This document shows, one piece after another, positions 3,851 to 57,373 of a DNA stretch of 64,000 bases (position 1 is its first letter; each line of letters starts with the position of its first letter). The DNA is taken from positions 38,970-102,969 of the forward strand of contig DASPXJ010000016.1 of the NCBI GenBank assembly GCA_035637355.1, written 5' to 3'. Below the pieces are notes generated by a model. It did not search any database. It was not told the DNA's origin and was given only the letters and a program-made list of their open reading frames with translations. The DNA is from Gemmatimonadales bacterium. Its GTDB lineage: Bacteria; Gemmatimonadota; Gemmatimonadetes; Gemmatimonadales; GWC2-71-9. Made by a program: the position numbers and the translations under genes.

Positions 3851-5493
3851 TCGAGGTCCTGGCTCATCGGGAGGCGGATATGATGGCGGCGCGCCGTCTC
3901 GATCGCTGCGGGATAGCCCGCGTCGGCATGCCGTGCGACACCGATCCCCGGATCGTTGGTGAGCACGCGCTCGAGCCGCCGCTCGGCCGCAGGCGTCCCG
4001 TCGGCGACGATCACCTGTCCCGCGTGCAGCGAGTTCCCGATGCCCACGCCGCCGCCGTGATGGAACGACACCCACGACGCGCCCGAGGCCGTGTTGAGCA
4101 GCGCGTTGAGGATCGCCCAGTCGGCGATGGCGTCGGAGCCGTCCCGCATCGCTTCGGTCTCCCGGAATGGCGAGGCGACCGAGCCGGTGTCGAGATGATC
4201 GCGGCCGATCACGATCGGCGCGGACAGCTCGCCGCGCCGCACCAGCTCGTTCAGCGCGAGCCCGAAGTGTGCCCGCTCGCCCTGCCCCAGCCAGCAGATC
4301 CGCGCCGGCAACCCCTGAAACGCGACGCGCTCCTGGGCGAGCGTGATCCAGCGCCGGAGATGCGCGTTGTCGGGGAAGAGCTCGAGCACGAGCTGATCGG
4401 TGCGGTGCAGGTCCTTCACGTCACCCGAGAGTGCGACCCAGCGGAACGGCCCCTTCCCTTCACAGAACAGCGGCCGGATGTACTCCGGTACGAATCCCGG
4501 AATCGTGAACGCGTCGCCGACGCCGGCGTCGCGCGCTTCCGTGCGGATGTTGTTGCCGTAATCGAACGCGATCGCGCCGCGCTGGTGGAAGTCGAGCATC
4601 GCCTGCACGTGAGTCGCCATGCTCGCCCGCGCGCGCCGCACGTACTCGTCGGGAGACGAGCGCCGCAATTCCTCCGCCGCGGCGAGATTCAACCCCGCCG
4701 GGATGTAGCCGTTGAGCGGATCGTGCGCCGACGTCTGGTCGGTCACCACATCGGGAACGAAGCCGCGGCGCACGAGGTCGGGCAGCACGTCGGCGCAATT
4801 GCCGACGAGACCGACGGAGAGCGCTTTCCCGGCTCGCCGTGCTTCCTCGCACCACGCCAGCGCTTCGTCCAGACGTGTCGTCGCACGATCGAGATACCGC
4901 GTTTCCACGCGGCGCTGCACCCGCGCGGGATCCACCTCGACGGCGAGACAAATCCCTTCATTCATGGTGGCCGCGAGCGGCTGCGCGCCGCCCATGCCTC
5001 CCAATCCACCCGTCAGGACGATGCGCCCCCGCAGCGATCCTTGAAACTGGCGCTGCGCAACCGCACCGAGGGTCTCATAGGTCCCCTGCAGAATTCCCTG
5101 CGTCCCGATGTAGATCCAGGATCCAGCGGTCATCTGGCCGTACATGATCAGACCGCGGCGTTCCAGATCGCGGAACACCTCCCACGTCGCGTACCGGCCG
5201 ACGAGATTGGCGTTGGCGATGAGCACCCGCGGGGCGTCGGGATGCGTCGTGAAGACGCCGACCGGTTTGCCCGACTGCACGAGCAGCGTTTCCTCGTCGC
5301 CCAGCGTGCGCAGCGTGCGGCAGATCGCATCGAACGACGCCCAGTTCCGCGCCGCCTTCCCCGTGCCGCCGTAGACCACCAGGTCCTGCGGCCGCTCCGC
5401 GACCTCCGGATCGAGGTTGTTCATCAGCATCCGCAGCGCCGCTTCCTGCACCCATCCCTTGCAGGACTTGGTGCTGCCGCGGGGCGCTTTCAC
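3847..5493 (-). CDS. hutU: Urocanate hydratase
   Basis: Motifs ...[13 protein letters not shown]..., ...[25 protein letters not shown]..., ...[13 protein letters not shown].... The start is set to GTG 5493, which overlaps the hutH TGA (GTGA). The ORF-track extension to 5718 overlaps hutH out of frame. Confidence 0.93.
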
Positions 5494-6947
5494 GGCGCAA
5501 ACCTGCCTGCCCGAATTCCGGCCGCGACCCGCTCGATGTCGGCCGTCATGGGCCGATCCCCCGTCAATGCCGGCGAGTCCTCGCGAACGGCGGCTTGCAG
5601 CCGCGCGACTGCTGTGGCGGGCCGCAGCGGCTTCAAGTATTCGAGTCCCTGGGCTCCCGCGAGCAGCTCGATGGCGAGAATCCGCTCGGTGTTGGCCAGG
5701 ATCCGTCCTGCCTTCCACGCGGCGCTCATGCCCATCGGCACGACGTCTTCCTGATTGCCTTCGGTGGGCACGGATTGCACGCTCGCCGGCGTCGCCAGCA
5801 CCCGGCAGTCGGCCACGAGCGCCGCGGCGGCGATCTGCGCCGTCATGAAGCCGGACTCGAGGCCGGGGTCGTGCGCCAGAAATGCCGGCAGCCCCGACGA
5901 CAGGTCCGGATTCACGACGCGCTCGAGGCGCCGCTCGGCCAGTCCGGCGAGCGTCGTCAGGGCAATCGCGACGACGTCGAGCGCGAGCGCGATCGGCTGG
6001 CCGTGGAAGTTCCCTCCTGAAATCACGTCGTCACCGAATACGAGCGGGTTGTCCGTCGCCGCATTCAGCTCCGTGGTGACGAGCTGCTCGGCGAACGCGA
6101 GTCCTTCGCCGGCCGCCCCCAACACCTGAGGCGTGCAGCGCAGCGAGTAGGCGTCCTGCACGCGCGGATCGTTCTCGCGGTGCGATTCGCGGATTTCGCT
6201 GTCGGCCAGGAGGTCGCGCAGCAGCGTCGCCGAGCGTTGCTGCTGTGGGTGCGGACGGGCGTCGTGAATGCGGGCGTCGAAGGGATCGGGTGAGCCGCGC
6301 ACCGCCTCGAGACTCATGGCCGCCGCTGCATGCGCCGTGCGCCAGGCGGTCCAGGCATCGGTCACGAGCAGCGCAGCGAGACCCGTTTGCGCCTGTGTCC
6401 CGTTGACGAATGCGAGGCCTTCTTTGGCTTCCAGCGTTATCGGCCGTGAGACCTGCACGTCTCCTTCGCCGATCATGGCCAGCGCCAGATGCGACAGGGG
6501 CGCAAGATCGCCCGACGCACCCACACTGCCCTGCGACGGCACCGTTGGATGCACGCGGGCATTGAGCATGTCGACGAGCAGCTCGGGAAGCACCGGTCGC
6601 ACCCCGCTCGTCCCGCGCAACAGCACGTTGGCGCGGAGCAGCATCATCGCGCGCACGGCATCCTGCGCCAGCGGCTCACCCACGCCCGAGGCATGGCTGC
6701 GAATCAGATTGAGCTGCAGCTGGCGCGCCTGCTCGGGGGGGATACGTACGTGCGCGAGTTTGCCGAATCCGGTATTGACGCCGTACATCGTCTGGCCGCG
6801 CTCGATCGCCGCCTCGACCGCGCGGCGCGATTGCTGCACCGCACCGAGCGCCCGGGGCGCGATCGCCACCGGCGCATTGCCTCGGGCGACCGCCACAACA
6901 TCCGCGATGGAAAGGGAATGGCCGTCCAACGTCACAGGCGTGGGCAT
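5490..6947 (-). CDS. hutH: Histidine ammonia-lyase
   Basis: MIO-forming motif ...[16 protein letters not shown]..., with lyase family sequence throughout. The start is placed at ATG 6947 (MPTPVTLDG...), downstream of a stem-loop at 6967-6991. The ORF track begins at 6986. Confidence 0.93.
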
Positions 6948-6966
6948 GAAGACCAAAGCTAAAGCG

Positions 6967-6991
6967 CCGGAGTGGCTGTTGACCACTCCGG
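6967..6991 (-). terminator. Stem-loop between the Fn3 lipoprotein gene and hutH (candidate intrinsic terminator or attenuator)
   Basis: Perfect 9-bp inverted repeat ccggagtgg / ccactccgg with a 7-nt loop. On the minus strand it is followed by cgctttagctttggtcttc, which is only partly T-rich. Confidence 0.45.
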
Positions 6992-7014
6992 CGCTGTCGC
7001 CAAGCGCAGGACCC

Positions 7015-8184
7015 CTATTTCGAGCCTGAAACCGTGGTTCCAGTCGACAGTGCGACCGACTGTCCCGCGCGAATCTGTAGCTCAGGGTTTCCGACGTCGG
7101 TCTGGAAGCTCCAGTCGAAGATCAAGTAGTCGCGTCCGACGTGCGTCATCCGCAGGGCGCCGTAGTGGAGTGTGGTCCCCTCGACGATCTCGAACACGTA
7201 CGCATATCCCGGCACCGCCTGAATCATGTTGCGGGAGTAACCGGACGCCGGGGCGAAGTCGATCGACGTCAAATCGGCGACCGGCGAGGTGCTGTACAGC
7301 TGCATCCGCGTCCCGGCGAACTCGGGCACCAGCCAGAGCGTGGAGTCAGTGGGATCGCGATACACCCAGGAATCGATGCTCGTCAGGTTGCCGGACTGCA
7401 CCCGGCCCAGCTCCGAAGCCTGGCCACGGCCGTCACCGTTGAGGTCCTGCCAGAACCGGAAGCCTGATCTGGTCGTGTCTTCGTCATAGGCGAACACGAG
7501 TGTATTGCGCGCGTCGGGCCGGGGCGTGTCCTGGCGCAGCGGCGACCACAGGCTCTCATAGCCCTCCCGGCTCACGGCCGTGATGCCGAAGCAGCGGGGC
7601 GCGCCGTTGGTCATCGCGCTGGCGAGGAACTCGGGCGCCACCGTCGTCCCCTCGAGCAGCCAGCTGGTATCGCACAGACCGGTATCGAGATTGTAGTCGG
7701 TACTGTAGATGCGATACCACTTGAAGCGCGTAGGGGCCGTGAGGTACGCGTTGTCGTCCCACTCCAGATGAATGGCGCCGTTCAACGAAATCGAGAACAG
7801 CGAGGCCGGCGCGTCGAGCTGGAGGCGCTCGTCGACCGTGATCACGTTGCTGTTGCCGCTCTCGTTGCCGTTGTCGTCCACCGCAGTCACGAGATACTGG
7901 AGATGAGGCACGCCGTTATCGTGGAACGTGTTGGAGCTGGTCTCGCCGCGCAGGCCGAACGAACCGCTGCTCGACGCGCGCGAATAGACGCGATAGCTGG
8001 CCAGATTCGCATCGGTGACGTCGTCCCAGATGAGCAGAATGCCCAGGGGGCGATTGGGATCGCCGCTGGGCTCGAGCTCGTAAGTGAGATTCGCCGGAGT
8101 AGACGGCCCGTTGCCCGGGGGAGCGACGAGCGACCCTTGGCAAGCAACGGCTGCCACCAACAGCAATGACAAGAGCAAACGCAT
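7015..8184 (-). CDS. Secreted or lipoprotein with two fibronectin-type-III-like modules and a C-terminal beta-rich domain; function unknown
   Basis: Signal sequence MRLLLSLLLVAAVAC with Cys. Fn3-like stretches are present (...LASYRVYSRASSSGSFGL...YLVTAVDDNGNESG...). ATG 8184 is preceded by GAGG. The ORF-track start 8223 would add 13 residues. Confidence 0.75.
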   Translation of the reverse strand: MRLLLSLLLVAAVACQGSLVAPPGNGPSTPANLTYELEPSGDPNRPLGILLIWDDVTDANLASYRVYSRASSSGSFGLRGETSSNTFHDNGVPHLQYLVTAVDDNGNESGNSNVITVDERLQLDAPASLFSISLNGAIHLEWDDNAYLTAPTRFKWYRIYSTDYNLDTGLCDTSWLLEGTTVAPEFLASAMTNGAPRCFGITAVSREGYESLWSPLRQDTPRPDARNTLVFAYDEDTTRSGFRFWQDLNGDGRGQASELGRVQSGNLTSIDSWVYRDPTDSTLWLVPEFAGTRMQLYSTSPVADLTSIDFAPASGYSRNMIQAVPGYAYVFEIVEGTTLHYGALRMTHVGRDYLIFDWSFQTDVGNPELQIRAGQSVALSTGTTVSGSK

Positions 8185-8310
8185 AGGAGCCTCAGGACGG
8201 GGGATCGCTGGAGGTGTAAGCACGGGACGTGCCGGAGGCGAAGTCGCTGATTCTCAGCGAGTTACAACAGAACCGCAGCCTGCCATGTCACCGCGAGAGG
8301 ACAGCGCAGT

Positions 8311-11300
8311 CTACTGGACGTACGTGCGCTGGTCGTAGTCGAACTTGATGTCGGGTTGATCGGTCAACGTGATGTTGAAGATGAACGAGAAATTACCGGT
8401 GGCGGTCTTGTAAAAACCGAAGCTCGCGTGCCAGCGGCGCAGGTCGCGCTGGAACGTCAGCGAGTGGTCGGCGAATTGCCGCGTCACGATGTCGTACGAC
8501 GTCGACCAGTTCGCAGTCCAGTTTCGTGTGGGGCTGAACGACAGATTCAGGCCGGCGGTCTGCCGCCCGGCGCGATGCTTCAACGCTCCCGTATCCGCGC
8601 GGCTGCGGGTGCTCGAGAGGGTGACGCCGAGCGCAAATTGCCGCCCGCCGCCGTGGCCGCCCCTCCCGCCCCCCATGCTGCCTTGTGGGCCGTACGGAAT
8701 CCGAGTTCCGCCATCATAGCGCCGGAAATCGTCGGTGGGGCCGCCCAGGCCGCTGTCGGCGCGCGCCGTCGTGTCCACCGCCGGTGGCCGGGCGGGCCGT
8801 GACCGCAGCCCGAGCAGACGGCCGATGCCTTGCAGTGTCGCGGGAGTGACCTGGAAGGAAGCGTTCACGCTTTGGAGGAACGGAGAGAACTTGGCGGTAT
8901 CCGATCCTACGTCGCCGTCCTTCCAGAGATCGTGCGTCATGCTCAGCTGAAAGCCGGGGACCAGGTCGGAGAGAAACGTGTTGCTCAATGTTCCCGTCTG
9001 CCAACCGGTGTTATGCGGCAGCTTCGCCCGCTCGAAGTTGTAGCCGATCGCGCTGGTGCTGATGCTGAGCAGCTTGATCTTGCGCGGTGCCTTCTCGGCG
9101 GCCGTGTCGCCGGCCGCGGGCTTGAGCTTCGCCTCGAACGTCTGCGCCAACCCCAGGCTGATTGTCTGCTGCGGATCGGTACGCGCTTTCAGCGTCCGGC
9201 CGGTCGGATCGAAGGCGTGGGCATACTCCTCCGGAATCTGGACGCCCGGCGCGTACTGATAACTGATGATCGGCGACACCGTATGGCGGATGCGCGCCAA
9301 TGGACCGAACCCGGGAAAGAACCCGAAAAAGGCGGGTGACACGCCCAGGTTGAAGGCCAGGCGCTTCCCCTGCCGGACGAATTCACCACCGGAGAACTGA
9401 TTGCGCAGCATGAAGGGACCGGACGTGGTGTTCACGATCGCCACCCCCGGCTGGATCTTCCACGTGCTGGTGAACAGCGTCGGCAGATTGATGCTCGTCG
9501 ACCAATCGACCTGCGTTTCGAACGTCCGGCCATACAGCACCCGATGGATACCGCGATCTGCCGTGTCTCCCGGCAGCGTGAACTCCGCGCGGTTGTTGCT
9601 GCGGACGTCCACGATCGTGAAATTGTTGGTCCAGTTCCAGCGCCCGAGGCGAATCGGCGTCCCGATGGTGATGTTCGTCCGGCGATCGTCGAAAAACTGC
9701 GGCAGCGTATCGGCAACGGTGCTGCCCGGCCTTCCGGGTATCAGCAGCTGGCCGCCCGCCTGGTGAAACCGTTGATCGTTTGTGTACGAAAACGTCGGCG
9801 ACCACGTGAGCCATGGCGTGATGGTGATGGTCGTCGGCGTCAAGTGAATCGAGGGGAAGGACTGATCGATGGCGTTCGAGGACAGCTCCTGCCGCCGGTT
9901 GCCGCCGATATCGAGGTTCGCCCACGACAACCGCTTGGTGAAGGTGGCGCTCGAGTTGATGCTCGCCGTCACTTCCATGGGATTGAGCGAGTTGCGCCGG
10001 ATGACCGACGCGTCGGTCGCGTAGTCGAGATGCGCATTGAAATCGGTGCGCGAATTGAAGCGCTGGGCGTGCGACCATCCGATGCGGGTGTTGGTGCTCG
10101 GCTGGTCCAGCTGCATCTGCCGGCTGTAGCTCAGCGTGCCGTGGACGAACCGATCGAGCCAGTCGTACTGCGCCTGCCCGTGAATCGCCACGTAGCGGCC
10201 CGCGAACCAATCCCCGCTCACGAGCACGTCGAGGTAGTCGTTGACCACGAAGTAGTAGCCGAGGTCGGTCATGTGCCGCGAATAGTGACGCGTCGGGCGG
10301 ACGAGGTCGTTCAATCCGAAGCGCGGAAACAGAATCCCGCTGCGCCGGCCCCCGCGGATGTCGTTGAAGATGAACGGCAGCCACATGATCGGCACGTCGC
10401 GCACGTACAGCACCGCGGGCCGCGCGATCATCGTCCGCTTGTTGATCCATTTGACCTGGCCGGCCGCAAAATGGTAGTCGGGCACGGGTTGCGGGTCGGA
10501 TGTGAAGTTCGCGGAGGCGACGTAGACGCGCTTGTTTCCCGAATCGGCCGCGATGTCGCCGCGCACGTACCAGGTCGCCCCACCCTGTTGGAAGTCCGTG
10601 AGCGCATCGCGCACGGTCCCTCGCCGCACGCACGTATCGTAGCGCATCCCCTCTCCGACGAGCACGGTCCCCTGATCGAAGAGATGCGGATCGCCGGCGG
10701 CATCGAGCCGGCAGCTCCCCTCGTGGTAGCGGATCGAATCAGCCTCGAGCTGTGTCCCCTCACGCTCGACGAACGCCTCGCGGCGCAGAAACGTCGTCTG
10801 GCTGTCGCCCTCGACCACGATCGTGTCGGACATGTACCGGGTGATGCGGAAGTTCGGCAGCTTGAGCAGCGAGTCGATGACGCGATCGGGAGCGGGAAAT
10901 GAGCGGCTCGGCGCAGTGGGCAGTCCCAGCTTGTGGGCCGTGGACGTGTCGACTCGGCCCCCGCGGCCGGTGTCGCCCGGCGCGGGCCGCGCAGGCGGCG
11001 GATTCTGTGCGTGGAGTGATCCCGCGCCGCCCCCCACTCCCAAAAGGACCAGCACGACCATCGCCGCCGCCACGCGGCGGGCGCGCCGCCGGCTGGCCAC
11101 CCACGCACACCAGATGCTGACCTCATAGAGCAACAGCAGCGGGCCGAGCATCAGCATCATCGAGACGGCATCGGGCGGCGTCAGAATCGCGGCGAGGAAC
11201 GCGGCGATCACGATCGCATAGCGCCGCTGCCGGCCCAGGAACTGCGGCGTGACGATCCCGAGCGAGGCGAGAATCGTCACCACCAGCGGCAGTTCGGCGA

Positions 11301-11805
11301 CGAGCCCGCAGCCGACGACGAACGGTATCGCCATGCCGAAGTAGCGATCGATGGTGATCATCGCCGTCAGGTCGGTGCGCTGAAAGCCGAGCAACACCTT
11401 GAGCGCGGCAGGCAGCAGCCACTGGTAGCACGCGGCGGCGCCGCCCAGGAACAGCACCACACCCACGCCCAGCGCGGGCACGATCAACCGCTTTTCGCGC
11501 TCGTACAGCGCGGGCGCGAGAAACGCCCAGATCTGATAGATGACGACCGGTGACGCGAGCAGGCCGCCGAGCGCGAACGCGACCTTCAAGGTGAGCATGA
11601 AGGGCTCGGCGGGGCTCGTGAAGACGAGCCGCCCGCCCGGCAGGTACGGCGCGATCGGCCGCTTGAGCACTTCGATGATGTCGATCTTGTCGAGCAACCA
11701 CCAGCCGACGATCGTGCCGACCAGAATCGCGAGCAGACTCCAGAGGATGCGCCAGCGCAGCTCCTCGAGATGGTCGAGAAACGGCATCTCACCGCGCGGG
11801 GTCAT
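8311..11805 (-). CDS. tatC: Single 1164-codon frame: complete TatC (aa ~1-236) continuing without a stop into a signal-peptide-like linker and a ~900 aa LptD/OstA-like outer-membrane protein
   Basis: The TatC part runs MPFLDHLEELRWR... with six hydrophobic segments and ends ...YEVSIWCAWVA. The linker is SRRRARRVAAAMVVLVLLGVGGGAGSLHA-Q. The LptD-like part has an OstA-like N-domain, ...GGRRSGILFPRFG..., and a long beta-rich C-terminus. The TatC domain spans roughly 11098-11805 (alternative ATG 11787). Possible internal LptD starts are GTG 11100 and ATG 11061. Confidence 0.8.
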   Translation of the reverse strand: MTPRGEMPFLDHLEELRWRILWSLLAILVGTIVGWWLLDKIDIIEVLKRPIAPYLPGGRLVFTSPAEPFMLTLKVAFALGGLLASPVVIYQIWAFLAPALYEREKRLIVPALGVGVVLFLGGAAACYQWLLPAALKVLLGFQRTDLTAMITIDRYFGMAIPFVVGCGLVAELPLVVTILASLGIVTPQFLGRQRRYAIVIAAFLAAILTPPDAVSMMLMLGPLLLLYEVSIWCAWVASRRRARRVAAAMVVLVLLGVGGGAGSLHAQNPPPARPAPGDTGRGGRVDTSTAHKLGLPTAPSRSFPAPDRVIDSLLKLPNFRITRYMSDTIVVEGDSQTTFLRREAFVEREGTQLEADSIRYHEGSCRLDAAGDPHLFDQGTVLVGEGMRYDTCVRRGTVRDALTDFQQGGATWYVRGDIAADSGNKRVYVASANFTSDPQPVPDYHFAAGQVKWINKRTMIARPAVLYVRDVPIMWLPFIFNDIRGGRRSGILFPRFGLNDLVRPTRHYSRHMTDLGYYFVVNDYLDVLVSGDWFAGRYVAIHGQAQYDWLDRFVHGTLSYSRQMQLDQPSTNTRIGWSHAQRFNSRTDFNAHLDYATDASVIRRNSLNPMEVTASINSSATFTKRLSWANLDIGGNRRQELSSNAIDQSFPSIHLTPTTITITPWLTWSPTFSYTNDQRFHQAGGQLLIPGRPGSTVADTLPQFFDDRRTNITIGTPIRLGRWNWTNNFTIVDVRSNNRAEFTLPGDTADRGIHRVLYGRTFETQVDWSTSINLPTLFTSTWKIQPGVAIVNTTSGPFMLRNQFSGGEFVRQGKRLAFNLGVSPAFFGFFPGFGPLARIRHTVSPIISYQYAPGVQIPEEYAHAFDPTGRTLKARTDPQQTISLGLAQTFEAKLKPAAGDTAAEKAPRKIKLLSISTSAIGYNFERAKLPHNTGWQTGTLSNTFLSDLVPGFQLSMTHDLWKDGDVGSDTAKFSPFLQSVNASFQVTPATLQGIGRLLGLRSRPARPPAVDTTARADSGLGGPTDDFRRYDGGTRIPYGPQGSMGGGRGGHGGGRQFALGVTLSSTRSRADTGALKHRAGRQTAGLNLSFSPTRNWTANWSTSYDIVTRQFADHSLTFQRDLRRWHASFGFYKTATGNFSFIFNITLTDQPDIKFDYDQRTYVQ

Positions 11806-12621: not shown

Positions 12622-13204
12622 CGCTGGTGATCTCGAACTCGTCGCGCCGGTTCTGGGACCACGCGCTTTCGTCGTGGCCATCCACCAGCGGCCGCTCCTC
12701 GCCCCACGACTGCGTCTCGATGCGGCTGGCATCGATGCCGTGGCTCACGAGATACTGTTTCGCGGACTGCGCGCGGCGATTGCCGAGTGCGAGGTTGTAC
12801 TCGTCGGAGCCGCGCTCGTCACAGTGCCCCGCGATCCGGATCCGCAGCTCGGGGTTCGCCTGAAGAATCGCGACCTTCTGATCGAGCGCGCCCATGTCAT
12901 CCGACCGGATGTTCGACTTATCGAGGTCGAAGTGGATCATCGCCGCGAGCATATTGCGCACTTCTTCGGCGTTGCGGCTGAGGGCGGCGAGAGAATCCGC
13001 TTCCCGCTGGCGCGCGATGCGTTCCGCTTCCTCGCGGGCCAGGCGGTCCGCTTCGGCCTGTGCCGCGGCGATGGAATCGCGCACCCGCTGGTTCTCGGCC
13101 GCGGTGTCGACCGCCGGCGTCGTATTCTGCGGCGGTGGGTTGCTGGGACACGCGGCGACCGCAACGCCGAGACCGATCACGAGGAGCCACGATACCGATT
13201 TCAT
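12593..13204 (-). CDS. pal: Peptidoglycan-associated lipoprotein (OmpA-family C-terminal domain)
   Basis: Lipobox ...GVAVAAC. OmpA-like domain ...IHFDLDKSNI...IAGHCDERGSDEYNLALGNRRA...NRRDEF. GGAGAG lies upstream of ATG 13204. Confidence 0.92.
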   Translation of the reverse strand: MKSVSWLLVIGLGVAVAACPSNPPPQNTTPAVDTAAENQRVRDSIAAAQAEADRLAREEAERIARQREADSLAALSRNAEEVRNMLAAMIHFDLDKSNIRSDDMGALDQKVAILQANPELRIRIAGHCDERGSDEYNLALGNRRAQSAKQYLVSHGIDASRIETQSWGEERPLVDGHDESAWSQNRRDEFEITSGGDNLRRPS

Positions 13205-13217
13205 CCTATCTCTCCGA

Positions 13218-14648
13218 TCAGGGGGTGGAAGAAGGAGCCTCCGAAAGCCGTGGAGACCAAGCCGGCAGCCGCGCGCCGCTCTGCTGTAGCAGCGGCCGGA
13301 TACGGCCGGTGTCGAGATCGATGATCCACAACTGGCGGTAGCCCGACCGGTCGGAAACGAAGGCGAGATGACGGCTGTCAGGAGCCCAGGTCGGATCTTC
13401 GTTGCGCCCCACTGAGGTGAGCTGCCGGACCGTGCGCGTACGCACGTCCAACACGAACACCTGCAGCGTGCCCGCCACGTCCCGGTGAAACGCCACCGAT
13501 TGCCCGTCGGACGACCACTCCGGAGCGTTGGACGAACCGGTCACGCCGTAATCGAAGGGCGCGAACAACTGCTGGTCCGTTCCGTCTGCCGCCATGACGT
13601 AGATCTGCGGCAGGCCCGGGCGCGTTGAGACAAACGCAATGCGCTGCCCGTCAGGGCTGAACGTCGGGGACAAGTTGTCTGAAAAGCGTCCCACGGTCAA
13701 GCGGCGTAAACAACAGTTATTCTTGATGTTAATCGTGTAGAGATCGGTGCCTTCCTCCGTCGCGCGGCTGAACGCCATGGTCTGCCCGTCAGGCGAAAAG
13801 GCCGGCGTGAAGTCGAGTGCGGTCCCCGTCGTCGAAACCGCCGTCCGCTTCCCCGACCCCATGTCCTGTAGATAGAGCCATCCCTTTCCCGCCTGAAATT
13901 CCATGTACGCGAAGTGCCGGCCATCCGCGCCCCAGGCGGGCGACATCGCCTGCCGGTCGGTGGACGAGACGAGCTTCATATCGGCGCCGTCCTGATCGAT
14001 CTGATACACCTTGCCATCTCTGACGAACAGGATGCGGGTCGCCGCGATGCCCGGCGTACCGAGCGCCGCCTGCAGCGCCTGATCCGCGAGCCGATGCACC
14101 GCCTGCCGGAAATCAGCATCACCGGGCGGCGGCAAGTGCGCGCGCACGCTGCGGCGGACACTCGCGGCCGCGATGTCATGCAGCGTGGCGACGGTGGTGT
14201 CGCCGGCGGCGGTGACATCGAGTGCGAAATCGGCGCCGAGCGCCTGGTAGAGCGGGTAATTGAGCGAGGTGCCCTGAGCACCGCCGCTCGTGCCGGTTGC
14301 CGCCGTCGCACGACGCGTGCTCCCTGCCGTCGTCCTGCCGGATGAGCCGGGCGTCGCAAGCCGGATCGAGTCGCCGCCCGGGAGCGTGATCACCTCGAAG
14401 CGATCACTGTAGTCGAGGTCGCGCGCGACGATCGCGCGGACGGAGTCGAGACCGCCCCCCTTTCGTGGCAGCATCACCAACCCCGGCCGCACACCCGGCC
14501 GGTAGATGATGCCGATGCGGACGCCGCGGTCGATGGCGGTCGTGTCTTGGGCGGATAGGCGGATCGGCGGATGGGCGGATTGCAAGAGCGCAACTAGGCC
14601 CATGATCCGCAAAACCCATCCGCCGATCCGCCGATCCGCCGATCTCAC
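13218..14648 (-). CDS. tolB: Tol-Pal system beta-propeller protein TolB
   Basis: Repeated ...FSPDGQ..., ...WSSDGQS..., ...WAPDSRH... propeller motifs. The start is proposed at GTG 14648, overlapping the tolA TGA (GTGA). This gives the signal peptide MRSADRRIGGWVLRIMGLVALLQSA. The ORF track begins at 14699, and an internal ATG lies at 14603. Confidence 0.9.
   Translation of the reverse strand: MRSADRRIGGWVLRIMGLVALLQSAHPPIRLSAQDTTAIDRGVRIGIIYRPGVRPGLVMLPRKGGGLDSVRAIVARDLDYSDRFEVITLPGGDSIRLATPGSSGRTTAGSTRRATAATGTSGGAQGTSLNYPLYQALGADFALDVTAAGDTTVATLHDIAAASVRRSVRAHLPPPGDADFRQAVHRLADQALQAALGTPGIAATRILFVRDGKVYQIDQDGADMKLVSSTDRQAMSPAWGADGRHFAYMEFQAGKGWLYLQDMGSGKRTAVSTTGTALDFTPAFSPDGQTMAFSRATEEGTDLYTINIKNNCCLRRLTVGRFSDNLSPTFSPDGQRIAFVSTRPGLPQIYVMAADGTDQQLFAPFDYGVTGSSNAPEWSSDGQSVAFHRDVAGTLQVFVLDVRTRTVRQLTSVGRNEDPTWAPDSRHLAFVSDRSGYRQLWIIDLDTGRIRPLLQQSGARLPAWSPRLSEAPSSTP
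14550..14640. repeat. Inverted repeat built from 8-bp tandem units: GGCGGATN x4 (14550-14581) facing NATCCGCC x3 plus one partial (14605-14640)
   Basis: Read directly: GGCGGATA GGCGGATC GGCGGATG GGCGGATT ... ATCCGC aaaac C ATCCGCC G ATCCGCC G ATCCGCC. Bases 14550-14575 can pair with 14615-14640 at 25 of 26 positions. An inner 5-bp cggat/atccg pair extends the stem. Confidence 0.9.
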
Positions 14649-15328
14649 TGTCGTTGTCCCGAAAAGTAGAACCGCACAAACAACACATCCGACTGCCACC
14701 CGTCCGGCAGCGAGCCGAACGCTTTGAAGCGTCCTGCCTCTTCGACCGCGCCCTGTGCTTCCAGGTCGAACGAGAAATTGCCCGAACGCCGGATGAACGT
14801 CAGGTCCGTGACCGAACCGTCGCGATGCACGAAGAACGACACCTCCGCCTCGAGCGGCGTGCTCTGGCCGGGCCGCTGCCAGCGGCGCAACACCTGCGAC
14901 ACGATGTTCTGCAGATACTCGGGGAACGGGAACGCGACGCCCTCGGTGCTCACCGTCGCGACGTCGTTCCCGGTGGACGGACGCTCACCCGGCAGGGGCT
15001 GCGTCGTGGACGTCGTACGCGGCGCGGCCTCGCGCGTCGTCTGGTCGCGTGTCGGCGGCGGCGGCGCGCGCGAAACCGTGCTCTGCGGGCGCTTGGCGGC
15101 GGGCATGGGCGCCGGCTTTTCCTCGGCCGGCCGGTCGAAGGCTGGAGGCGCCTTCCGCGACTCGAGATCGGCCGCGGGCGCGGCGACCAGATGCACGCGG
15201 TAGGTCGGCGGCAGCCGCGTCCGGCCGGCCGGTGTGGCGAGCAGCAACGCGCCCACCAGCCCGTGTACGACCAGTGTGCCCGTCACCGCCATGCCTACAG
15301 GGGCCGGGTTGCGGCCGCGTCCTCTCAT
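14645..15328 (-). CDS. tolA: TolA/TonB-family energy-transducer protein (N-terminal anchor, Pro-rich spacer, TonB-type C-terminal domain)
   Basis: TM segment ...VTGTLVVHGLVGALLLA, a Pro/Ala-rich linker, and a C-terminal ...EVSFFVHRDGSVTDLTFIRRSGNFSFD... domain. It lies between tolR and tolB, with an ATGA overlap to tolR. Confidence 0.8.
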   Translation of the reverse strand: MRGRGRNPAPVGMAVTGTLVVHGLVGALLLATPAGRTRLPPTYRVHLVAAPAADLESRKAPPAFDRPAEEKPAPMPAAKRPQSTVSRAPPPPTRDQTTREAAPRTTSTTQPLPGERPSTGNDVATVSTEGVAFPFPEYLQNIVSQVLRRWQRPGQSTPLEAEVSFFVHRDGSVTDLTFIRRSGNFSFDLEAQGAVEEAGRFKAFGSLPDGWQSDVLFVRFYFSGQRQ

Positions 15329-15774
15329 CGGTTGATCGTCTCCGGTTCGGCTACGAGTCCCACATCCTGCACGCCTGCAGCACGAATGACCGCAAGCACC
15401 TGGACGACCCGTGCATACGCTACACGGCCGTCGGCTCGCAAATACACCCCTGTCGGCCGTTTCGTTCGCACGAAGGCGGGAAAGGTGGACTGGAAGTCAT
15501 CGTAGGAGAGCGCCGCCTGATCGAGATAGATCTTGCCGTCACTGTCCACGGTCACCACGAGCCCTTGCTTCGGCTCAATGGCCCGCACCTGCGCGCGCGG
15601 CAGGCGGACGTCGACGCCGCCCTGCATGATGGGTGCGGTGATCATGAAAATGATAAGCAACACGAACGCGACGTCCACAAGCGACGTGACGTTGATGTCG
15701 GCGTTGAGCGGGAGCTCGCCGTGCCCGCGGAGACCTCCTCCGCCTCCGCCACCGCCGCCGAGTAGTCCAGCCAT
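15325..15774 (-). CDS. tolR: Biopolymer transport protein TolR/ExbD
   Basis: Motif ...INVTSLVDVAFVLLIIFMITAP..., plus its size and position after tolQ. Confidence 0.9.
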   Translation of the reverse strand: MAGLLGGGGGGGGGLRGHGELPLNADINVTSLVDVAFVLLIIFMITAPIMQGGVDVRLPRAQVRAIEPKQGLVVTVDSDGKIYLDQAALSYDDFQSTFPAFVRTKRPTGVYLRADGRVAYARVVQVLAVIRAAGVQDVGLVAEPETINR

Positions 15775-16514
15775 CAGATCCGTCCTTCGCGGGCCAAGGT
15801 GCCGATGATCTCCTGGGCAAAGCCCTCGAGCTCACCGGCGAACAGGCCCAGCCGGTTGACGAAGAGGTTGTAGGCCATCACCGCCGGCACGGCGACGGCG
15901 AGGCCGCCGACGGTCGTGACCAGCGCTTCCGCGACGCCCGGCGCGACGGCGGTGATGTTCCCGGAGCCGCCCACCGCGATGCCGATGAACGCGTCCATCA
16001 CGCCCAGTACCGTGCCGAGCAGGCCCAACAACGGGCTGACGGAGCCGAACGTCGCCAGCCAGGGAATGAAGCGCGCCGCCATGTCGCGCTCGGCCGCCAC
16101 TTCCTTGGCGAGCACCATGCGCAACGCCTCGAGCTGCGTCGTGGTCAACGCGGTAGTAGCCCCGGGAGAGAGGGCGGCAACGTCCGGTGCGGAGGCGCGC
16201 GCTTTCAGACTGCCGGGCTTCAGCTCGGAGAAGAAATGCACGCCCTCGCGCAGCAGCCGGTTATAGGGCGACGGCGGCAGACGCATCGCGGCGTGATACG
16301 CGTCCTCCAGGCGTGGGGCTTTCTCGACTTCGGCCAGAAAGTGGTCGCCCAGCTGCCGCATGCGGCGGAATTGCCACCACTTGAGGACGATCAGATACCA
16401 CGATACGAGTGAAAAGACGGCGAGCACGCCCAGCACGAACTGCGTCTCGCGGCTGGATGTGAGGACCAGCTCCCACGGTGTCGTGGGGATCGCCCCTCGG
16501 ACCTGTAGCAGCAC
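15774..16514 (-). CDS. tolQ: Proton-channel protein TolQ (MotA/TolQ/ExbB family)
   Basis: Three TM segments and the C-terminal ...GLLGTVLGVMDAFIGI...VAPGVAEALVTTVGGLAVAVPAVMAYN motif. Confidence 0.9.
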   Translation of the reverse strand: MLLQVRGAIPTTPWELVLTSSRETQFVLGVLAVFSLVSWYLIVLKWWQFRRMRQLGDHFLAEVEKAPRLEDAYHAAMRLPPSPYNRLLREGVHFFSELKPGSLKARASAPDVAALSPGATTALTTTQLEALRMVLAKEVAAERDMAARFIPWLATFGSVSPLLGLLGTVLGVMDAFIGIAVGGSGNITAVAPGVAEALVTTVGGLAVAVPAVMAYNLFVNRLGLFAGELEGFAQEIIGTLAREGRI

Positions 16515-17507
16515 CTAACCTCCTCGGTAACCGTGCGGGTGTGCTTGATGCCAGCGCCAGGCGCTACCTAGAATCTCCTCGAGACTCGAATGCGCTGCCC
16601 GCCAGCCGAGCACCGACGCTGCGCGCCCGATGGCGGCGACCAGCTCCGGCGGATCGCCGGGACGGCGCGGACGCTCAACGGTGGGCACCGGGCGGCCAGT
16701 GACGCGGCGCGCTGCCTCGACGACCTCCCGCACCGAGCGGCCCGCACCGGTGCCGAGGTTGACCGCGACGGCCGAGCGGTCATCGAGCTGCACATCCAAC
16801 GCGCGCAGGTGCGCGTCGGCAATATCGGTGACATGCACGTAGTCCCGGACTGCGGTACCGTCAGCGGTCGGATAATCGGTGCCGTAGACCTCGAGCGCAC
16901 CGCGCCGGCCGAGCGCCGCCGCCAGCACATTCGGGATCAAATGCGTCTCCGGGTCGTGGTCTTCGCCAAGCCGGTCCGTGGCGCCTGACGCATTGAAGTA
17001 GCGCAAACTCACCACCTCCATGCCGTTCCGGGGCCCGACGTCGGCGAGCAGCCGCTCGAAGTCTCGCTTCGTCTCGCCGTATGGATTCACCGGCGCCTGC
17101 GGCGAATCTTCCGTTATCGGAATCTTCGCCGGATGACCGTACACCGCGCACGAAGATGACAGAACAAAGCGGCGGACGTTGGCGCGAACCGCCGCGTCCA
17201 ACAGTACCCGGGCGGCCGTCACATTGTTGGTCGCATACATCTGGGGCTGGGCAACGGACTCGGCAACGAGCGCGAAGGCCGCCAGGTGGATAATTGCGTC
17301 GATGCGCTCGCGTTCGAACACTGCCGTGACGAGCTCGCGATCTCCTACTCCACCCTGGATGAAGCCGGCGCCGCGTGCCACCGCCTCCCGATGCCCCCGG
17401 CTCAGATCATCGAGGACGACAACCGTGAAGCCGCGCTCCAGAAGCTGATCTACCAGAATGCTGCCGATGTACCCTGCCCCGCCGGTCACGAGCACGCGTC
17501 TGGTCAC
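16515..17507 (-). CDS. galE: UDP-glucose 4-epimerase
   Basis: N-terminus VLVTGGAGYIGS, with SDR YxxxK (PYGETK) and ...LRYFNASGA.... GTG 17507 overlaps the hemA TGA (GTGA). Confidence 0.88.
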   Translation of the reverse strand: MTRRVLVTGGAGYIGSILVDQLLERGFTVVVLDDLSRGHREAVARGAGFIQGGVGDRELVTAVFERERIDAIIHLAAFALVAESVAQPQMYATNNVTAARVLLDAAVRANVRRFVLSSSCAVYGHPAKIPITEDSPQAPVNPYGETKRDFERLLADVGPRNGMEVVSLRYFNASGATDRLGEDHDPETHLIPNVLAAALGRRGALEVYGTDYPTADGTAVRDYVHVTDIADAHLRALDVQLDDRSAVAVNLGTGAGRSVREVVEAARRVTGRPVPTVERPRRPGDPPELVAAIGRAASVLGWRAAHSSLEEILGSAWRWHQAHPHGYRGG

Positions 17508-49875: not shown

Positions 49876-50322
49876 TTACACCCGCCGTTTCTTGGGCGGC
49901 CGGCACCCGTTGTGCGGAATCGGGGTGACGTCGCGAATCGAGCGGATCTGCAGCCCGGCGCTGGCGAGTGCCTGAATGGCGGACTCGCGGCCGGAGCCGG
50001 GCCCCTGCACCCGCACGTGCACGCGCTTGACGCCCAGGTTCAACGCTTCGCGCGCCGCCTGCTCGGCCGCCACCGTCGCGGCGAACGGCGTCGACTTCTT
50101 GGAGCCCTTGAAGCCCGCTTTCCCCGAAGAGCCCCACGTAATCGCGTTGCCCTGCAGGTCGGTGATCGTGATGAGCGTGTTGTTGAACGTCGCGGTGACG
50201 TGCGCGATGCCCTCGGCTTCGACGACCTTCTTGGTGCGCTTGGCGCCACCGGCCGCACGAGCTGGTGCTGGCTTGGCGTCTGGTTTCGCGTCCGGTTTCG
50301 GGTCTGGTTTTGCGTCGGCCAT
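49876..50322 (-). CDS. rpsK: 30S ribosomal protein S11 with a (K-P-D-A/P) repeat N-terminal extension
   Basis: ...[17 protein letters not shown]...GSRKSTPFAA.... The N-terminus is [20 protein letters not shown]. Confidence 0.96.
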
Positions 50323-52879: not shown

Positions 52880-54408
52880 GGGCGCTCCGGCAGCTTCGGC
52901 CGGTCGCGATCGGGTGCGGGACGCGCTCCCCCCGGTGGTGGACGCGGCTGACCGCGCGCTGGACGCGCAGCCCCCCCCCTCACCGGCGCACGCTGTTCCG
53001 GTTCGTCGAGCCACGGACCCCGAGGACCCGGAATCGGAGCGTCAAAGCGCGCTCCGGAGGGAGCGGTTGTGCTCTGCGCGAATTGCACGCCGAGCTCGCG
53101 CGCGAGGGAGTCCTCCGCCGCCGCGTAGGCGACGCTTGGCTCTCCATGGAACACTCGCGTATAGGGCGACGCGGCGTAGCGCGTGTCCAAGACCCGCGCA
53201 ATCGAATCACGGCGGTCGGGCAGGAGCGCGAGCGCCGCCACCAGCGCTTTGGGTGCGTAGAGCGAGCCGGTATCTCCGGCAGTCACATCGAGGAAGAGCT
53301 GGCCGGCGAGCGCAGGAGCACCCAGCGAATCGCGCGCCAGCTCAGCCATGCGAAAGCGCATGCCCGGCGTCTCGGGGACCGGGATGACGGCGGTGACGAG
53401 ATCGAGCCAGCGCTTCGCCGCCGCGCCGCCGGCAGAGACGCGCTGGAGCCGCGCCAGCTCAGCCGCGACCGGCGCCAAGTCACTGCGGCCGGTCGCCCGC
53501 GCGATCACGACGCGTTGCTGACCAACGAGCGCCATTCCCGCCTCGGCCGTCTCGACCGGCGCGATGTCGACCGCGCGTCGATACCGCGCCGCTGCCGCGT
53601 CGTAGTCGGCGTGCGCGAGGCGACGCTCGGCGTCCGCGATCAGCAGCTTGGCCTGCTCCGTGGGCGGCAAGCGGACGCGCCCGAGCATGCGATCCAGCGC
53701 CGCGGACGCCGCTTCGGGCCCCCCCCCTCCCCCCCCTCCCCCCCCACCGCCGGTCGCGGCAAACTGGGCGAGAAGATCCATCCGATCGGACTCGAATCGT
53801 GAACTGTTGTCGAGCGCGTTGAGCGCGGTCGTCGCGTCGGCCGGTCGCCCGGCCAACAGGTGCGCGCGCACCAGCGCGGGAAGGGCCGCCGGCTCACGCG
53901 ATCGTTCGAAATGCTTCACGGCAGCGTCATAATCGAACTGCTGCACCGCCGCCTCCCCCGCCAAGTACTCGGCGCGCGAGCGGCGGCCGCCGTCTTTGGA
54001 CGCGAGCGGCAGCGCCAGCGCCGCGGCGGCCTGCTGCGGATGGCGTGCGGCGAGCGCGCACTGGGCCGTGGCGAGCTCCACCCGCTCCCGCAGCGCCGGC
54101 TCCTTGACACTCGTGTCTGCTCGCGCGATTGGCTCGGCGGCATCCTGGCACTGACCGGATCGGGCCATCCCCTCGACCTGCAGAACCAGCGCGTCGTCTG
54201 CCCAACGGCTGCGTGGATGACGCTGCACGACCGCTTCGGCTTTGGCGGCGGCAAGCGCCCATTGGGCGCGCGCTTCGGAGACTTGCCCGCGCTCCTCGAG
54301 GTGCCGCGCATCCGAGGCATAATGCTCGGCACTCCACATGGCGTTATAGTAGGCACAACCCGCCAGCGACCAGATCAGAGTCAATGCGCTCCAGCGCCGG
54401 CCGGTCAT
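52876..54408 (-). CDS. Helical-repeat (TPR-like) lipoprotein with an internal 11-Gly run and an Arg/Pro-rich tail; function unknown
   Basis: MTGRRWSALTLIWSLAGC lipobox. The body is Ala/Arg-rich helical repeat. The Gly run is encoded by G8-A-G8-A-G9 (minus strand, 53719-53745). Confidence 0.7.
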   Translation of the reverse strand: MTGRRWSALTLIWSLAGCAYYNAMWSAEHYASDARHLEERGQVSEARAQWALAAAKAEAVVQRHPRSRWADDALVLQVEGMARSGQCQDAAEPIARADTSVKEPALRERVELATAQCALAARHPQQAAAALALPLASKDGGRRSRAEYLAGEAAVQQFDYDAAVKHFERSREPAALPALVRAHLLAGRPADATTALNALDNSSRFESDRMDLLAQFAATGGGGGGGGGGGPEAASAALDRMLGRVRLPPTEQAKLLIADAERRLAHADYDAAAARYRRAVDIAPVETAEAGMALVGQQRVVIARATGRSDLAPVAAELARLQRVSAGGAAAKRWLDLVTAVIPVPETPGMRFRMAELARDSLGAPALAGQLFLDVTAGDTGSLYAPKALVAALALLPDRRDSIARVLDTRYAASPYTRVFHGEPSVAYAAAEDSLARELGVQFAQSTTAPSGARFDAPIPGPRGPWLDEPEQRAPVRGGAARPARGQPRPPPGGARPAPDRDRPKLPERP

Positions 54409-56145: not shown

Positions 56146-56229
56146 GCCGAAGTGGTGGAACTGGTAGACGCGCTGGCTTCAGGAGCCAGTGGGCGCAAGC
56201 CCGTGGGGGTTCGAGTCCCCCCTTCGGCA
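56146..56229 (+). tRNA. tRNA-Leu (anticodon CAG), class II with a long variable arm; CCA is not encoded
   Basis: Hand-folded. Acceptor GCCGAAG/CTTCGGC. Anticodon stem CTGGC/GCCAG with loop TTCAGGA. Variable arm TGGGCGCAAGCCCGT. T arm GGGGG-TTCGAGT-CCCCC. It is close to E. coli tRNA-Leu(CAG). Confidence 0.93.
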
Positions 56230-56230
56230 C

Positions 56231-57373
56231 TCAGTATCTCGGGACCTCTTCATCCACCTCGCGTGACCATGCGTCGATGCCCCCCGCCAGGCTCCGCACG
56301 TTCGCGAATCCTGCTCCTTTGAGAATCTCGCGCGCCTGGAGCGAGCGTTGGCCGTGATGGCAATGCGTTACGATCTCCGCGTGTCCCGGCAGCTCGGCTA
56401 GCCGGCGCGGCAGCTCGCGCAGCGGAATCAGCCGGGCACCTTCGATGTGGGCGATCTGCGCCTCGCGCGGTTCGCGGACGTCGAGCAGCACGAGGTCCGG
56501 CTTGGAGCCGCGCTCGCGTTGCAGCTCTCGGGCACTGATCTCCGCCCCATCCCCCTTCCCTCTTCCCTCTTCCCCCATTCCGCAGAATGCTGCGTAATCG
56601 ATGAGTGACGTGACGGTCGGATGAATGCCGCAGACCGGGCACTCGGGATCCTTTTCGAGCGCCAGCTCTCGGAACTGCATCCGTCGGCCATCGAACAACA
56701 GCAGGCGGTCGATCAACGGCTCGCCAAACCCCACGATCAGCTTGATCGCTTCGAGGGCCTGCAGCGATCCGATGATTCCGGGCAGCACGCCGAGCACTCC
56801 ACCCTCCGCGCACGACGGCACGAGATCGGGCGGGGGCGGCTCGGCGTAGAGACAGCGATAGCACGGCCCCTGTTTCGCGTAAAACACCGAGACCTGCCCA
56901 TCGAACCGGAACACCGACCCGTACACATCGGGCTTGCCCAGCAGCACGCAGGCGTCGTTGACGAGGTAGCGGCTGGGGAAGTTGTCGGAACCGTCGACGA
57001 CGATGTCGAAGTCGCGAAGGATGGTGAGGGCGTTGGCCGACGTCAGACGCTCCGCGAACGTCGCAACTTGCACATGGGGGTTGATGTCGCGCAGGCGCGC
57101 CCGCGCCGATTCCGTTTTCGCGCTGCCAATACCGGACGTGCCGTGGAGGATTTGGCGCTGCAGGTTGCTGAGATCGACGAGATCGAAGTCCACCAGTCCC
57201 AGCGTTCCCACGCCGGCGGCGGCGAGATACAACGCCGCCGGCGATCCCAGCCCGCCCGCGCCGATAAGCAGGACGCGCGCGTCGCGCAGCTTCGCTTGGC
57301 CTTCGAGACCTACATCGGGAAGCGTGAGGTGCCGGGAGTACCGCAGCAGTTCCTCATGCGACAGCGTCGTCAA
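56231..57373 (-). CDS. moeB: ThiF/MoeB-family adenylyltransferase fused to a C-terminal rhodanese domain (MoeZ type)
   Basis: ...RYSRHLTLPDVGLEGQAKL...LLIGAGGLGSP..., two CxxC pairs (...CYRC..., ...CPVC...), and rhodanese ...THCHHGQRS.... TTG 57373 overlaps the Rrf2 TGA. Confidence 0.85.
   Translation of the reverse strand: MTTLSHEELLRYSRHLTLPDVGLEGQAKLRDARVLLIGAGGLGSPAALYLAAAGVGTLGLVDFDLVDLSNLQRQILHGTSGIGSAKTESARARLRDINPHVQVATFAERLTSANALTILRDFDIVVDGSDNFPSRYLVNDACVLLGKPDVYGSVFRFDGQVSVFYAKQGPCYRCLYAEPPPPDLVPSCAEGGVLGVLPGIIGSLQALEAIKLIVGFGEPLIDRLLLFDGRRMQFRELALEKDPECPVCGIHPTVTSLIDYAAFCGMGEEGRGKGDGAEISARELQRERGSKPDLVLLDVREPREAQIAHIEGARLIPLRELPRRLAELPGHAEIVTHCHHGQRSLQAREILKGAGFANVRSLAGGIDAWSREVDEEVPRY

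Follow-up and report, generated by a model that had tools for sequence, protein, structure and literature searches.

We examined the tolA/tolB junction in a 64,000-nucleotide (nt) stretch of Gemmatimonadales DNA (contig DASPXJ010000016.1, positions 38,970 to 102,969; hereafter "the window") and found that the first codons of tolB form an RNA hairpin whose arms are tandem repeats of 8-nt units. The stem is stable, is kept by covariation among relatives, is translated, and lies directly 3' of a conserved stop/start overlap. Its repeat arrays turn over fast in the DNA while the arms remain complementary. Sequence comparisons place the tolB hairpin as one member of a Gemmatimonadales-wide family with tandem 7- or 8-nt repeat arms at cistron boundaries. 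Structural translational coupling of tolB to tolA would be the best single mechanism at this locus, with a probability that we put at roughly 40%.

The mRNA (minus) strand carries four GGCGGAUN units and, facing them, four complementary units with which they pair. The 5' arm, GAUC(GGCGGAUC)x2 GGCGGAUG GG, consists of tandem 8-nt units at 14615-14644 and is paired inward from 14640 in the minimum free energy (MFE) structure, and the 3' arm contains the four 8-nt units AAUCCGCC CAUCCGCC GAUCCGCC UAUCCGCC at 14550-14581. Between them is an apical part (14582-14614) with an in-frame ATG at 14602-14604; here the MFE structure has an inner helix (approximately 14603-14610 with 14576-14583) and a small loop. 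Read on the plus strand, the arrays are GGCGGATA GGCGGATC GGCGGATG GGCGGATT at 14550-14581 and (ATCCGCCG) x3.4 at 14618-14644, with an additional ATCCGC at 14605-14610. Positions 14550-14575 are complementary to 14615-14640 at 25 of 26 sites, and complementarity is 93% in an alternative register one unit over (14554-14580 with 14618-14644). Pairing begins at 14640, a base 8 nt from the G of the tolB GTG (14648) and 5 nt past that codon. At the other end, the 3' arm stops at 14550, the final base of the Ala(-1) codon that precedes Gln-Asp-Thr. A first-pass annotation made from the letters alone had described the four 8-bp units, the complementary units facing them and the 25-of-26 pairing, all of which we recovered. 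It also placed the 5' arm just past the GTG, which is correct, but gave the spacing as 6 nt instead of 5.

The same annotation had proposed that this segment be folded against shuffled controls. Minus-strand RNA from 14660 to 14540 has an MFE of -69.4 kcal/mol, compared to -44.8 ± 3.9 kcal/mol for dinucleotide shuffles (z = -6.35), and none of 200 shuffles was equally stable, so the hairpin has a stability advantage of the kind anticipated. No other inverted repeat in the 64-kb window has arms that reach both 18 nt in length and 90% complementarity, and the 15-mer GGCGGATNGGCGGAT, which corresponds to two units, occurs five times in the window, always at this site, where 0.1 occurrences are expected. 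An Rfam scan of 13000-16600 gave no match at the gathering score. Viral microRNA-precursor families matched both strands below threshold (43 bits against a gathering score of 97), and these matches were set aside as generic similarity between GC-rich hairpins. A scan for promoters and terminators returned nothing at the hairpin and no terminator-like site at 14550-14650; the GC-rich stem is followed by CCCAAGACACG rather than by the U-tract of an intrinsic terminator.

The hairpin covers tolB codons 3-33, nearly all of the 33-codon signal-peptide region (14550-14648, minus strand) that encodes VRSADRRIGGWVLRIMGLVALLQSAHPPIRLSA. Across the hairpin the tolB frame reads VRSADRRIGGWVLRIMGLVALLQSAHPPIRLSAQ, and the peptide quoted in the first-pass annotation is correct in this frame. 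The 5' arm specifies the charged n-region (SADRRIGGW), the loop specifies the hydrophobic core and the 3' arm specifies the c-region (HPPIRLSA). By eye, the putative signal peptide fits the Sec/Tat pattern of a positively charged n-region, a hydrophobic core and a c-region with small residues at -1 and -3 (RSADRR / IGGWVLRIMGLVALL / QSAHPPIRLSA-Q); its homologues end in LSAQ or LTAQ, followed by DT.

We compared the window with 75 Gemmatimonadales relatives retrieved using the TolB protein, giving a set of 76 junctions. The TolB homologues in Gemmatimonadales are 81-94% identical and carry the name TolB, and the tolA C-terminus, LFVRFYFSGQRQ followed by the stop codon, is conserved across all 76 loci. 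In the window the tolB start overlaps the tolA stop as GTGA (14645-14648, minus strand), and an RTGA overlap is found at 74 of the 76 junctions, with or without a hairpin; the remaining two have a one-base overlap. Because the overlap is so widely kept, the tolB start can be fixed at 14648, where the first-pass annotation had put it. A long signal-peptide region (93-126 nt) is present at 52 junctions, 39 of which fold with z < -3, and the 24 junctions with a short region (45-87 nt) have a median z of -0.25 and no hairpin. The hairpins extend from directly past the start codon to the last signal-peptide codon. Where a gapless inverted repeat was clear (41 loci), the distance from the first base of the start codon to the onset of the 5' arm is 2-19 nt (median 5), and the Gln codon marks the end of the 3' arm. 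The hairpin persists at this site down to approximately 70% TolB identity.

The first-pass annotation had further claimed that both arms are translated. Within the first 45 nt of the 52 long junctions there are no stop triplets in the tolB frame, compared to 33 in the two other frames. Thus, the 5' arm is read by ribosomes and the claim is upheld. The N-termini of the 81-94% identical TolB homologues are hypervariable, and their two halves are reverse-complement translations of each other, as in VGRFGGWAV...TAQPPNRLTAQ, RRWKVGRLEG...SNIPTFQLSAQ and, for paired n- and c-regions, ADRRIGGW...YPPIRLSA.

Compensatory changes between relatives had been suggested as another check, and these were found. 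The arms fall in register in an unsupervised MAFFT alignment of 31 junctions, and RNAalifold predicts 24 pairs from this alignment, 12 of which carry compensatory double changes. When the structure was scored across the 31 junctions, 91.5% of cells were paired compared to 80.2% in shuffles, with 0 of 500 shuffles reaching 91.5%; cells with double changes numbered 112 compared to 36 in shuffles, and slid controls of the same structure gave only 25-51% pairing. The units follow the pattern G-n-C-G-G-n-n-N, in which G1, C3, G4 and G5 hardly ever change. Species differ at positions 2, 6 and 7, but these positions are identical across the units of an array and complementary in the opposite arm, and position 8 is usually unpaired, leaving 7-bp helices between 1x1 mismatches. 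Arms also match their own partners best, with an average pairing score of 16.3 within a locus compared to 8.3 between loci. Among sense-strand positions that depart from Watson-Crick pairing, G.U outnumbers A.C by 42 to 12 in the tolB set and by 40 to 27 in a second, independent set of hairpins, for a combined 82 to 39. The G.U excess hints at selection acting at the RNA level. We grade it as a hint only, because it is strong at tolB and weak in the independent set.

Unit identity changes rapidly beneath this conserved architecture. Signal-peptide regions fall into three length classes, armless (45-48 nt, such as MTPVLLAVLLTVAQ), with a 3' array only (72-87 nt) and with both arms (93-126 nt), and the classes are separated by steps of approximately 24 nt, which equals three units or eight codons. 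The presence of the hairpin varies among close relatives, with armless and one-arm states both occurring, and single clusters of 90% TolB identity contain many unit flavours together with armless members. For example, the window carries GGCGGATC units where L001, with a TolB that is 97% identical over the best-matching segment, carries GTTGGAAT units. Other pairs of loci with 92-97% identical flanks also carry different units. We also asked whether unit flavour marks phylogeny or travels as a recombination cassette and rejected both ideas, finding no correlation with flank similarity (0.778 for same-flavour pairs and 0.770 for the others upstream; 0.727 and 0.724 downstream); therefore, neither inheritance nor simple cassette exchange is demonstrated. 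In locus L045 one arm contains four identical CTATCCGT units that its partner arm matches poorly, which indicates that arrays are homogenised at the DNA level independently of pairing. The 3' array has a copy of CTAACCGCC (Leu-Thr-Ala) at each end, and from its sequence it looks like an in-place amplification of local Leu-Thr/Ser-Ala codons. The first-pass annotation had warned that gain or loss of one 8-bp unit would shift the tolB frame. No such allele was seen, and the tolB frame is intact at each of the 76 loci.

Hairpins of the same build occur at other sites. An inverted-repeat scan covering 1.37 Mb around tolB in relatives identified AAGACGCC-unit hairpins at one site, between an exported-protein gene and hutH (site a), in three loci (L029, L030 and L063). 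The corresponding site in the window has a terminator-like hairpin, GCGACAGCGCCGGAGTGG-n7-CCACTCCGGCGCTTTAGC with a T-rich tail (6958-7000, minus strand), whose neighbours are a 402-aa exported-protein open reading frame (ORF; 7015-8223) and hutH (5490-6986). The base of the orthologous stem is lengthened by tandem AAGACGCC/GGCGTCTT units in the three relatives, and site a looks like a plain terminator being converted to a repeat-armed hairpin. Intergenic hairpins are also found between tsaE and tsaB (site b), approximately 8.1-8.2 kb upstream of tolB, in L042 (1968-2082), L044, L045, L050, L063 and L069, and a further intergenic site has heptamer hairpins in L046 (19395-19492) and L029 (15708-15805). 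The arrays at sites b and c are built from the heptamers GCGGAAT, GCGGATT and GTGCGGC, those between tsaE and tsaB using GCGGAAT or GCGGATT, and those of the tolB site and most signal-peptide arrays are octamers, which rules out a uniform period of 8. Different sites within one genome use different units. The heptamer hairpins start 5-9 nt past the upstream stop codon and have loops of 20-65 nt. A T-arm-like sequence (GGTTCGACTCC) in the intergenic loop of L042 raised the possibility of a tRNA, which was discarded when ARAGORN found none in nine such loci.

We then draw on a metagenome scan for three consecutive GGCGGATN units, for which all counts of hairpins refer to the matches listed. The scan returned at least 120 loci, none of them at tolA/tolB among those matches, and 46 clear hairpins of the same build, several contigs carrying two sites. 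The first-pass annotation had suggested an array search to decide whether the element is specific to this locus, and the answer is that it is not. Lowering the score cut-off from 14 to 13 carried 49 hairpins forward. These were oriented by ORF and third-codon-position GC (GC3) evidence on both strands; orientation by the G-rich arm was abandoned as meaningless, the reverse complement of such a hairpin also being G-rich first. In 29 of the 49, the hairpin occupies the start of a long ORF; each of these has a start codon close to the 5' arm edge (mostly 1-30 nt upstream), a hydrophobic loop and ...LSAQ ending the 3' arm. A co-directional upstream gene with GC3 support has its stop codon within 11 nt of the 5' arm in 25 of these 29 cases, and by our grouping such tight junctions represent about 11 of some 14 distinct gene families. 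The exported proteins concerned include M42 and M16 peptidases, a PorV-like protein, dienelactone hydrolase, CcmH, a POTRA protein and substrates of the twin-arginine (Tat) type, and the signal-peptide flavours seen in TolB recur as a set in one of these families, a 210-aa Gemmatimonadales protein encoded downstream of engB. Loops differ at every locus, each being the hydrophobic core of its own gene product, and only the arms are shared between loci.

Among 90 hairpins with periodic arms in the collected DNA, a sample biased by locus retrieval, the period is 8 in 75, 7 in 13 and 10 in 2. Intergenic copies have their 5' edge 0-9 nt past the upstream stop and their 3' edge 0-25 nt ahead of the next start, and in L130 octamer arrays extend the apex of a classical bidirectional terminator between convergent genes. 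The family sits in signal-peptide codons or short intergenic gaps, nearly always starting within approximately 11 nt of the upstream stop. At L176 and L198/L104, repeat-armed hairpins of metagenomic origin enclose Tat-type signal peptides (SRREFVGLVGAG; TRREAIVSAVA), which associates the hairpins with export signals in general and not with Sec substrates only. Uninterrupted GGCGGATN arrays of 7 to 12 or more units that have no inverted partner were also observed (L093, 925-1019; L120, 40-86; L101, 2227-2297; L083, 2708-2816). Those of L093 and L120 are open in all three frames, reading (GGSADRRI)n. L083 lies on a contig of 45% GC, and therefore this unit also forms arrays outside high-GC Gemmatimonadales. 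Full-text literature searches yielded no earlier account of repeat-armed hairpins, either within signal-peptide codons or from Gemmatimonadota, and this lineage-wide family appears to be previously undescribed.

How might such a hairpin act? On the tolQRA-tolB transcript, the stem would close the first ~33 tolB codons directly behind the start codon, and a free 30S subunit could load only by melting the basal helix. A ribosome terminating at the tolA TGA would already hold those bases in its mRNA channel and could restart on the overlapping GTG. TolB synthesis would then be gated by, and proportioned to, tolA translation, and after each passage the repeat arms could re-zip in more than one register to restore the block. 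Constrained folding predicts that the cost of opening a ribosome footprint is higher in the hairpin class than at hairpin-less junctions (median 19.0 compared to 15.9 kcal/mol, p = 0.001), and the window requires 20.9 kcal/mol compared to 10.4 kcal/mol for the hairpin-less L008. The 25 tight-junction hairpins among the 29 signal-peptide cases also fit coupling, because a hairpin of this kind may work only where a ribosome arriving from upstream unfolds it. As a class, the hairpins probably tie translation of a gene to that of its predecessor. G-quadruplex formation, CsrA binding (GGA) and Shine-Dalgarno-like pausing were considered as other roles and dropped, their motifs not being common to all unit flavours.

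Several observations weigh against coupling. The extra opening cost is modest, approximately 3 kcal/mol at the median, and we accordingly rejected the stronger idea that the hairpin renders independent initiation impossible. The start codon and the bases upstream of it lie outside the stem, which begins at +8, and the start codon is unpaired. At 24 of the 76 junctions the RTGA overlap is present without a hairpin, which is therefore dispensable for TolB expression; the loci are moreover phylogenetically related, so that the junction counts are not independent. Intergenic copies stop approximately 20 nt short of the next start codon, and that codon is served by a Shine-Dalgarno sequence of its own. 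These copies and the convergent one in L130 gate no start codon, and thus coupling cannot explain the whole family. It also leaves unexplained the 7/8-nt tandem build and the unpaired eighth base. The G.U excess could derive in part from strand-biased C-to-T mutation. Escherichia coli makes TolB in excess of TolA, an outcome that strict coupling would not favour. Finally, we infer coupling from the geometry of the junction.

The modest opening cost, the 24 hairpin-less junctions and the intergenic and convergent copies keep two other explanations serious, each of which we nevertheless think unlikely to be correct. According to one, the hairpin is a 3'-end element of the upstream cistron, serving as a barrier to 3'-to-5' exonucleases, a processing site for RNase III or RNase E, or a weak attenuator that lacks a U-tract. 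It would separate the fate of the tolQRA mRNA from that of tolB-pal-ybgF, in the way that REP/BIME hairpins act within E. coli operons, and would lie in tolB signal-peptide codons only because the tolA/tolB overlap leaves no intergenic room. The sole feature common to all contexts, a 5' edge within approximately 11 nt of an upstream stop codon, speaks for this explanation, and it holds at tolA/tolB, at intergenic sites a and b, in the 25 signal-peptide cases and in the heptamer intergenic cases. The unit-lengthened terminator-like stems at site a and the extended terminator apex in L130 point the same way, and RNase III could accept arms of this length (26-44 bp) as substrates. Yet the tolB hairpin has neither a U-tract nor a terminator call, the conserved overlapping start argues for tolB being on the same transcript, cleavage within the stem would destroy the tolB reading frame, and the explanation gives no reason for a hairpin that spans the whole signal peptide in place of a minimal stem. 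The other explanation is non-adaptive: a lineage-specific DNA process would amplify 7-8-nt units and mirror them between arms, perhaps by replication slippage within arrays and template switching between inverted arms, filling stretches that are free of constraint (intergenic gaps and signal peptides) with any RNA effect as a tolerated side effect. We find such a self-expanding palindromic repeat doubtful, although much of the turnover described above is in its favour, including the patchy presence among close relatives, the ~24-nt length steps, the many flavours and armless members within single 90%-identity clusters, the independence of flavour from flank similarity, the homogenised but unmatched arm of L045, the seeding of units from local codons (CTAACCGCC) and the way in which hairpins exactly fill the available space. 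It does not account for complementarity that is kept through unit changes at most loci, for the 82:39 ratio of G.U to A.C on the sense strand, for the 25 of 29 signal-peptide copies at stop/start junctions, which space filling does not predict, or for the persistence of the tolB-site hairpin to ~70% TolB identity. These points weaken it only, because "correction" by template switching could mimic covariation.

Two further possibilities can be given much less weight. Insertion of a mobile palindromic element (REP/REPIN or miniature inverted-repeat transposable element, MITE) that is read in frame within the signal peptide would account for the dispersal of GGCGGATN hairpins over at least 120 metagenome loci and for contigs with two sites, and MITEs that form part of a signal peptide in frame are known (PMC2229807). 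We consider this very unlikely at tolB: only the arms are common between loci, with loops being gene-specific, and what distinguishes a filled tolB site from an empty one is a pair of separate in-frame 24-nt tandem expansions on either side of the resident hydrophobic core, rather than a single inserted block. Neither a target-site duplication nor a GTAG/CGTC tag is present, units differ between sites of one genome, and the 64-kb window holds a single copy. The idea that tolB is a contingency locus, switched on and off by frameshifts as one 8-bp unit is gained or lost (phase variation), has in its favour a non-triplet tandem repeat inside a coding region and a unit number that changes over evolutionary time. 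It is highly improbable given that every one of the 76 junctions is open in frame from the RTGA through both arms, that length classes differ by 24 nt or three units, that the variable eighth base interrupts the units and would damp slippage, and that tolB is part of a core envelope system.

Structural coupling, our preferred reading at tolA/tolB, can be extended to a broader proposal, which we regard as speculative and rather improbable. Across the Gemmatimonadales, dual-coding elements whose tandem 7-8-nt-unit arms are renewed in place at cistron junctions would encode the n- and c-regions of signal peptides in genes for exported proteins while closing the early coding sequence, thereby forming a secretome-wide gate that is opened by the ribosome of the upstream gene. 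If true, this would imply a specific generative mechanism in which unit amplification is mirrored between arms around a fixed G-n-C-G-G core. Should the pairing prove functional, the tolB hairpin would show clearly, in a natural sequence, how one stretch can carry two codes, a covarying RNA stem and a working signal peptide, with the RNA constraint visibly dictating the peptide through its reverse-complement n- and c-regions. The setting of protein ratios at operon junctions in an almost unstudied phylum, the real extent of sequence freedom in signal peptides, and the co-evolution of tandem and inverted repeats by concerted evolution within and between arms would then become open to direct testing. 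There are also consequences for annotation. Many database TolB entries start inside the hairpin loop, gene callers mis-place the starts of hairpin-bearing genes, and signal-peptide predictors and orthology pipelines will meet hypervariable N-termini that are really RNA-driven. Two homologues (P0165 and P0181) of the 210-aa exported protein of L155 are fused in database entries to the upstream EngB/YihA-type GTPase (PF01926). These fusions fit a stop/start overlap at the engB junction and the mis-handling of hairpin-bearing starts by gene callers.

The tol genes of the window are arranged as six consecutive minus-strand genes, identified from ORFs and Pfam matches: tolQ (MotA_ExbB), tolR (ExbD), a tolA-like gene of 227 aa (14645-15328; TonB_2 C-terminal domain, PF13103, E = 2.5e-11) with its TGA stop at 14645-14647, tolB of 476 aa (13218-14648; PD40 beta-propeller, E = 1.9e-36), pal (OmpA) and a ybgF/cpoB-like gene for a tetratricopeptide repeat (TPR) protein. 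Near-identical relatives differ by an indel in a Gly run of the TolB N-terminal domain (KGGGGL or KGGGGGGL; window ~14446-14460, columns 351-357 of alignment A1), which coincides with a homopolymer run of G and resembles ordinary slippage. Elsewhere on the minus strand, a single ORF of 1164 aa (8311-11805) has a TatC-like beginning and passes without an internal stop through a signal-peptide-like stretch, MVVLVLLGVGGGAGSLHAQ, into a large outer-membrane-like protein; it is either a gene fusion or two same-frame genes with no stop between them. Three other tandem repeats in the window lack an inverted partner, namely a 12-nt repeat CTGGTTTCGCGT x4.1 at 50268-50316, a C-rich 9-mer CCCCCCCCT x2.9 at 53719-53745, and a (CCCCTTC)x5 array at 56545-56581, approximately 300 nt downstream of the sole window tRNA gene (tRNA-Leu, 56146-56230).

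Structure-dependent coupling at overlapping stop/start junctions operates in the MS2 coat-replicase pair and at many ATGA/TGATG operon junctions. The tolA/tolB junction resembles these in that the downstream start overlaps the upstream stop and that local structure by the start would open under a terminating ribosome. It differs in that the stem includes neither the start codon nor a Shine-Dalgarno sequence and is wholly inside the downstream coding sequence, and in that the hairpin is made of tandem 8-nt units, doubles as signal-peptide code and belongs to a dispersed family. A non-triplet tandem repeat within a coding region is also a property of contingency loci; unlike them, tolB shows no frameshifted alleles in 76 loci, and its repeats are paired as an inverted array with a variable base interrupting the units.

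Repetitive extragenic palindromic (REP) sequences, bacterial interspersed mosaic elements (BIMEs) and REPINs (PMC3116915, PMC3733652) are likewise GC-rich, dispersed hairpins, typically located between co-directional genes just past stop codons, and they may stabilise upstream mRNA or terminate transcription. In contrast to REP and REPIN elements, the present family has no conserved 20-40-nt consensus and no GTAG/CGTC tag, occurs once in the window and has arms that are site-specific tandem 7-8-mers drifting in concert. REP sequences are extragenic, whereas the tolB copy is in an open reading frame, as are the many family copies in signal-peptide codons, with others being intergenic. The Rickettsia palindromic element (RPE) and the Yersinia elements YPAL and RU-2 are palindromic MITEs that are read in frame, one of which is reported to contribute to a predicted signal peptide (PMC2229807). 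The tolB hairpin shares with RPE and YPAL a palindromic repeat translated in frame inside real genes, but MITEs are single blocks of 100-170 bp with fixed internal sequence and here two separate arrays flank a resident, gene-specific core. The fepA translation-activating stem-loop (TASL), from 2017 work as summarised in PMC11979758, is described there as a short single stem that activates initiation. Like TASL, which acts on translation initiation, the tolB structure is a stem-loop in the signal-sequence codons of an envelope-protein mRNA; compared to TASL, the stem here is longer (25-45 bp, at -40 to -87 kcal/mol) and nearer the start. The in-frame YPAL MITEs and the fepA stem-loop are the nearest precedents. 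The tolB hairpin may act like a coupling hairpin or like an intercistronic stem-loop of the REP type.

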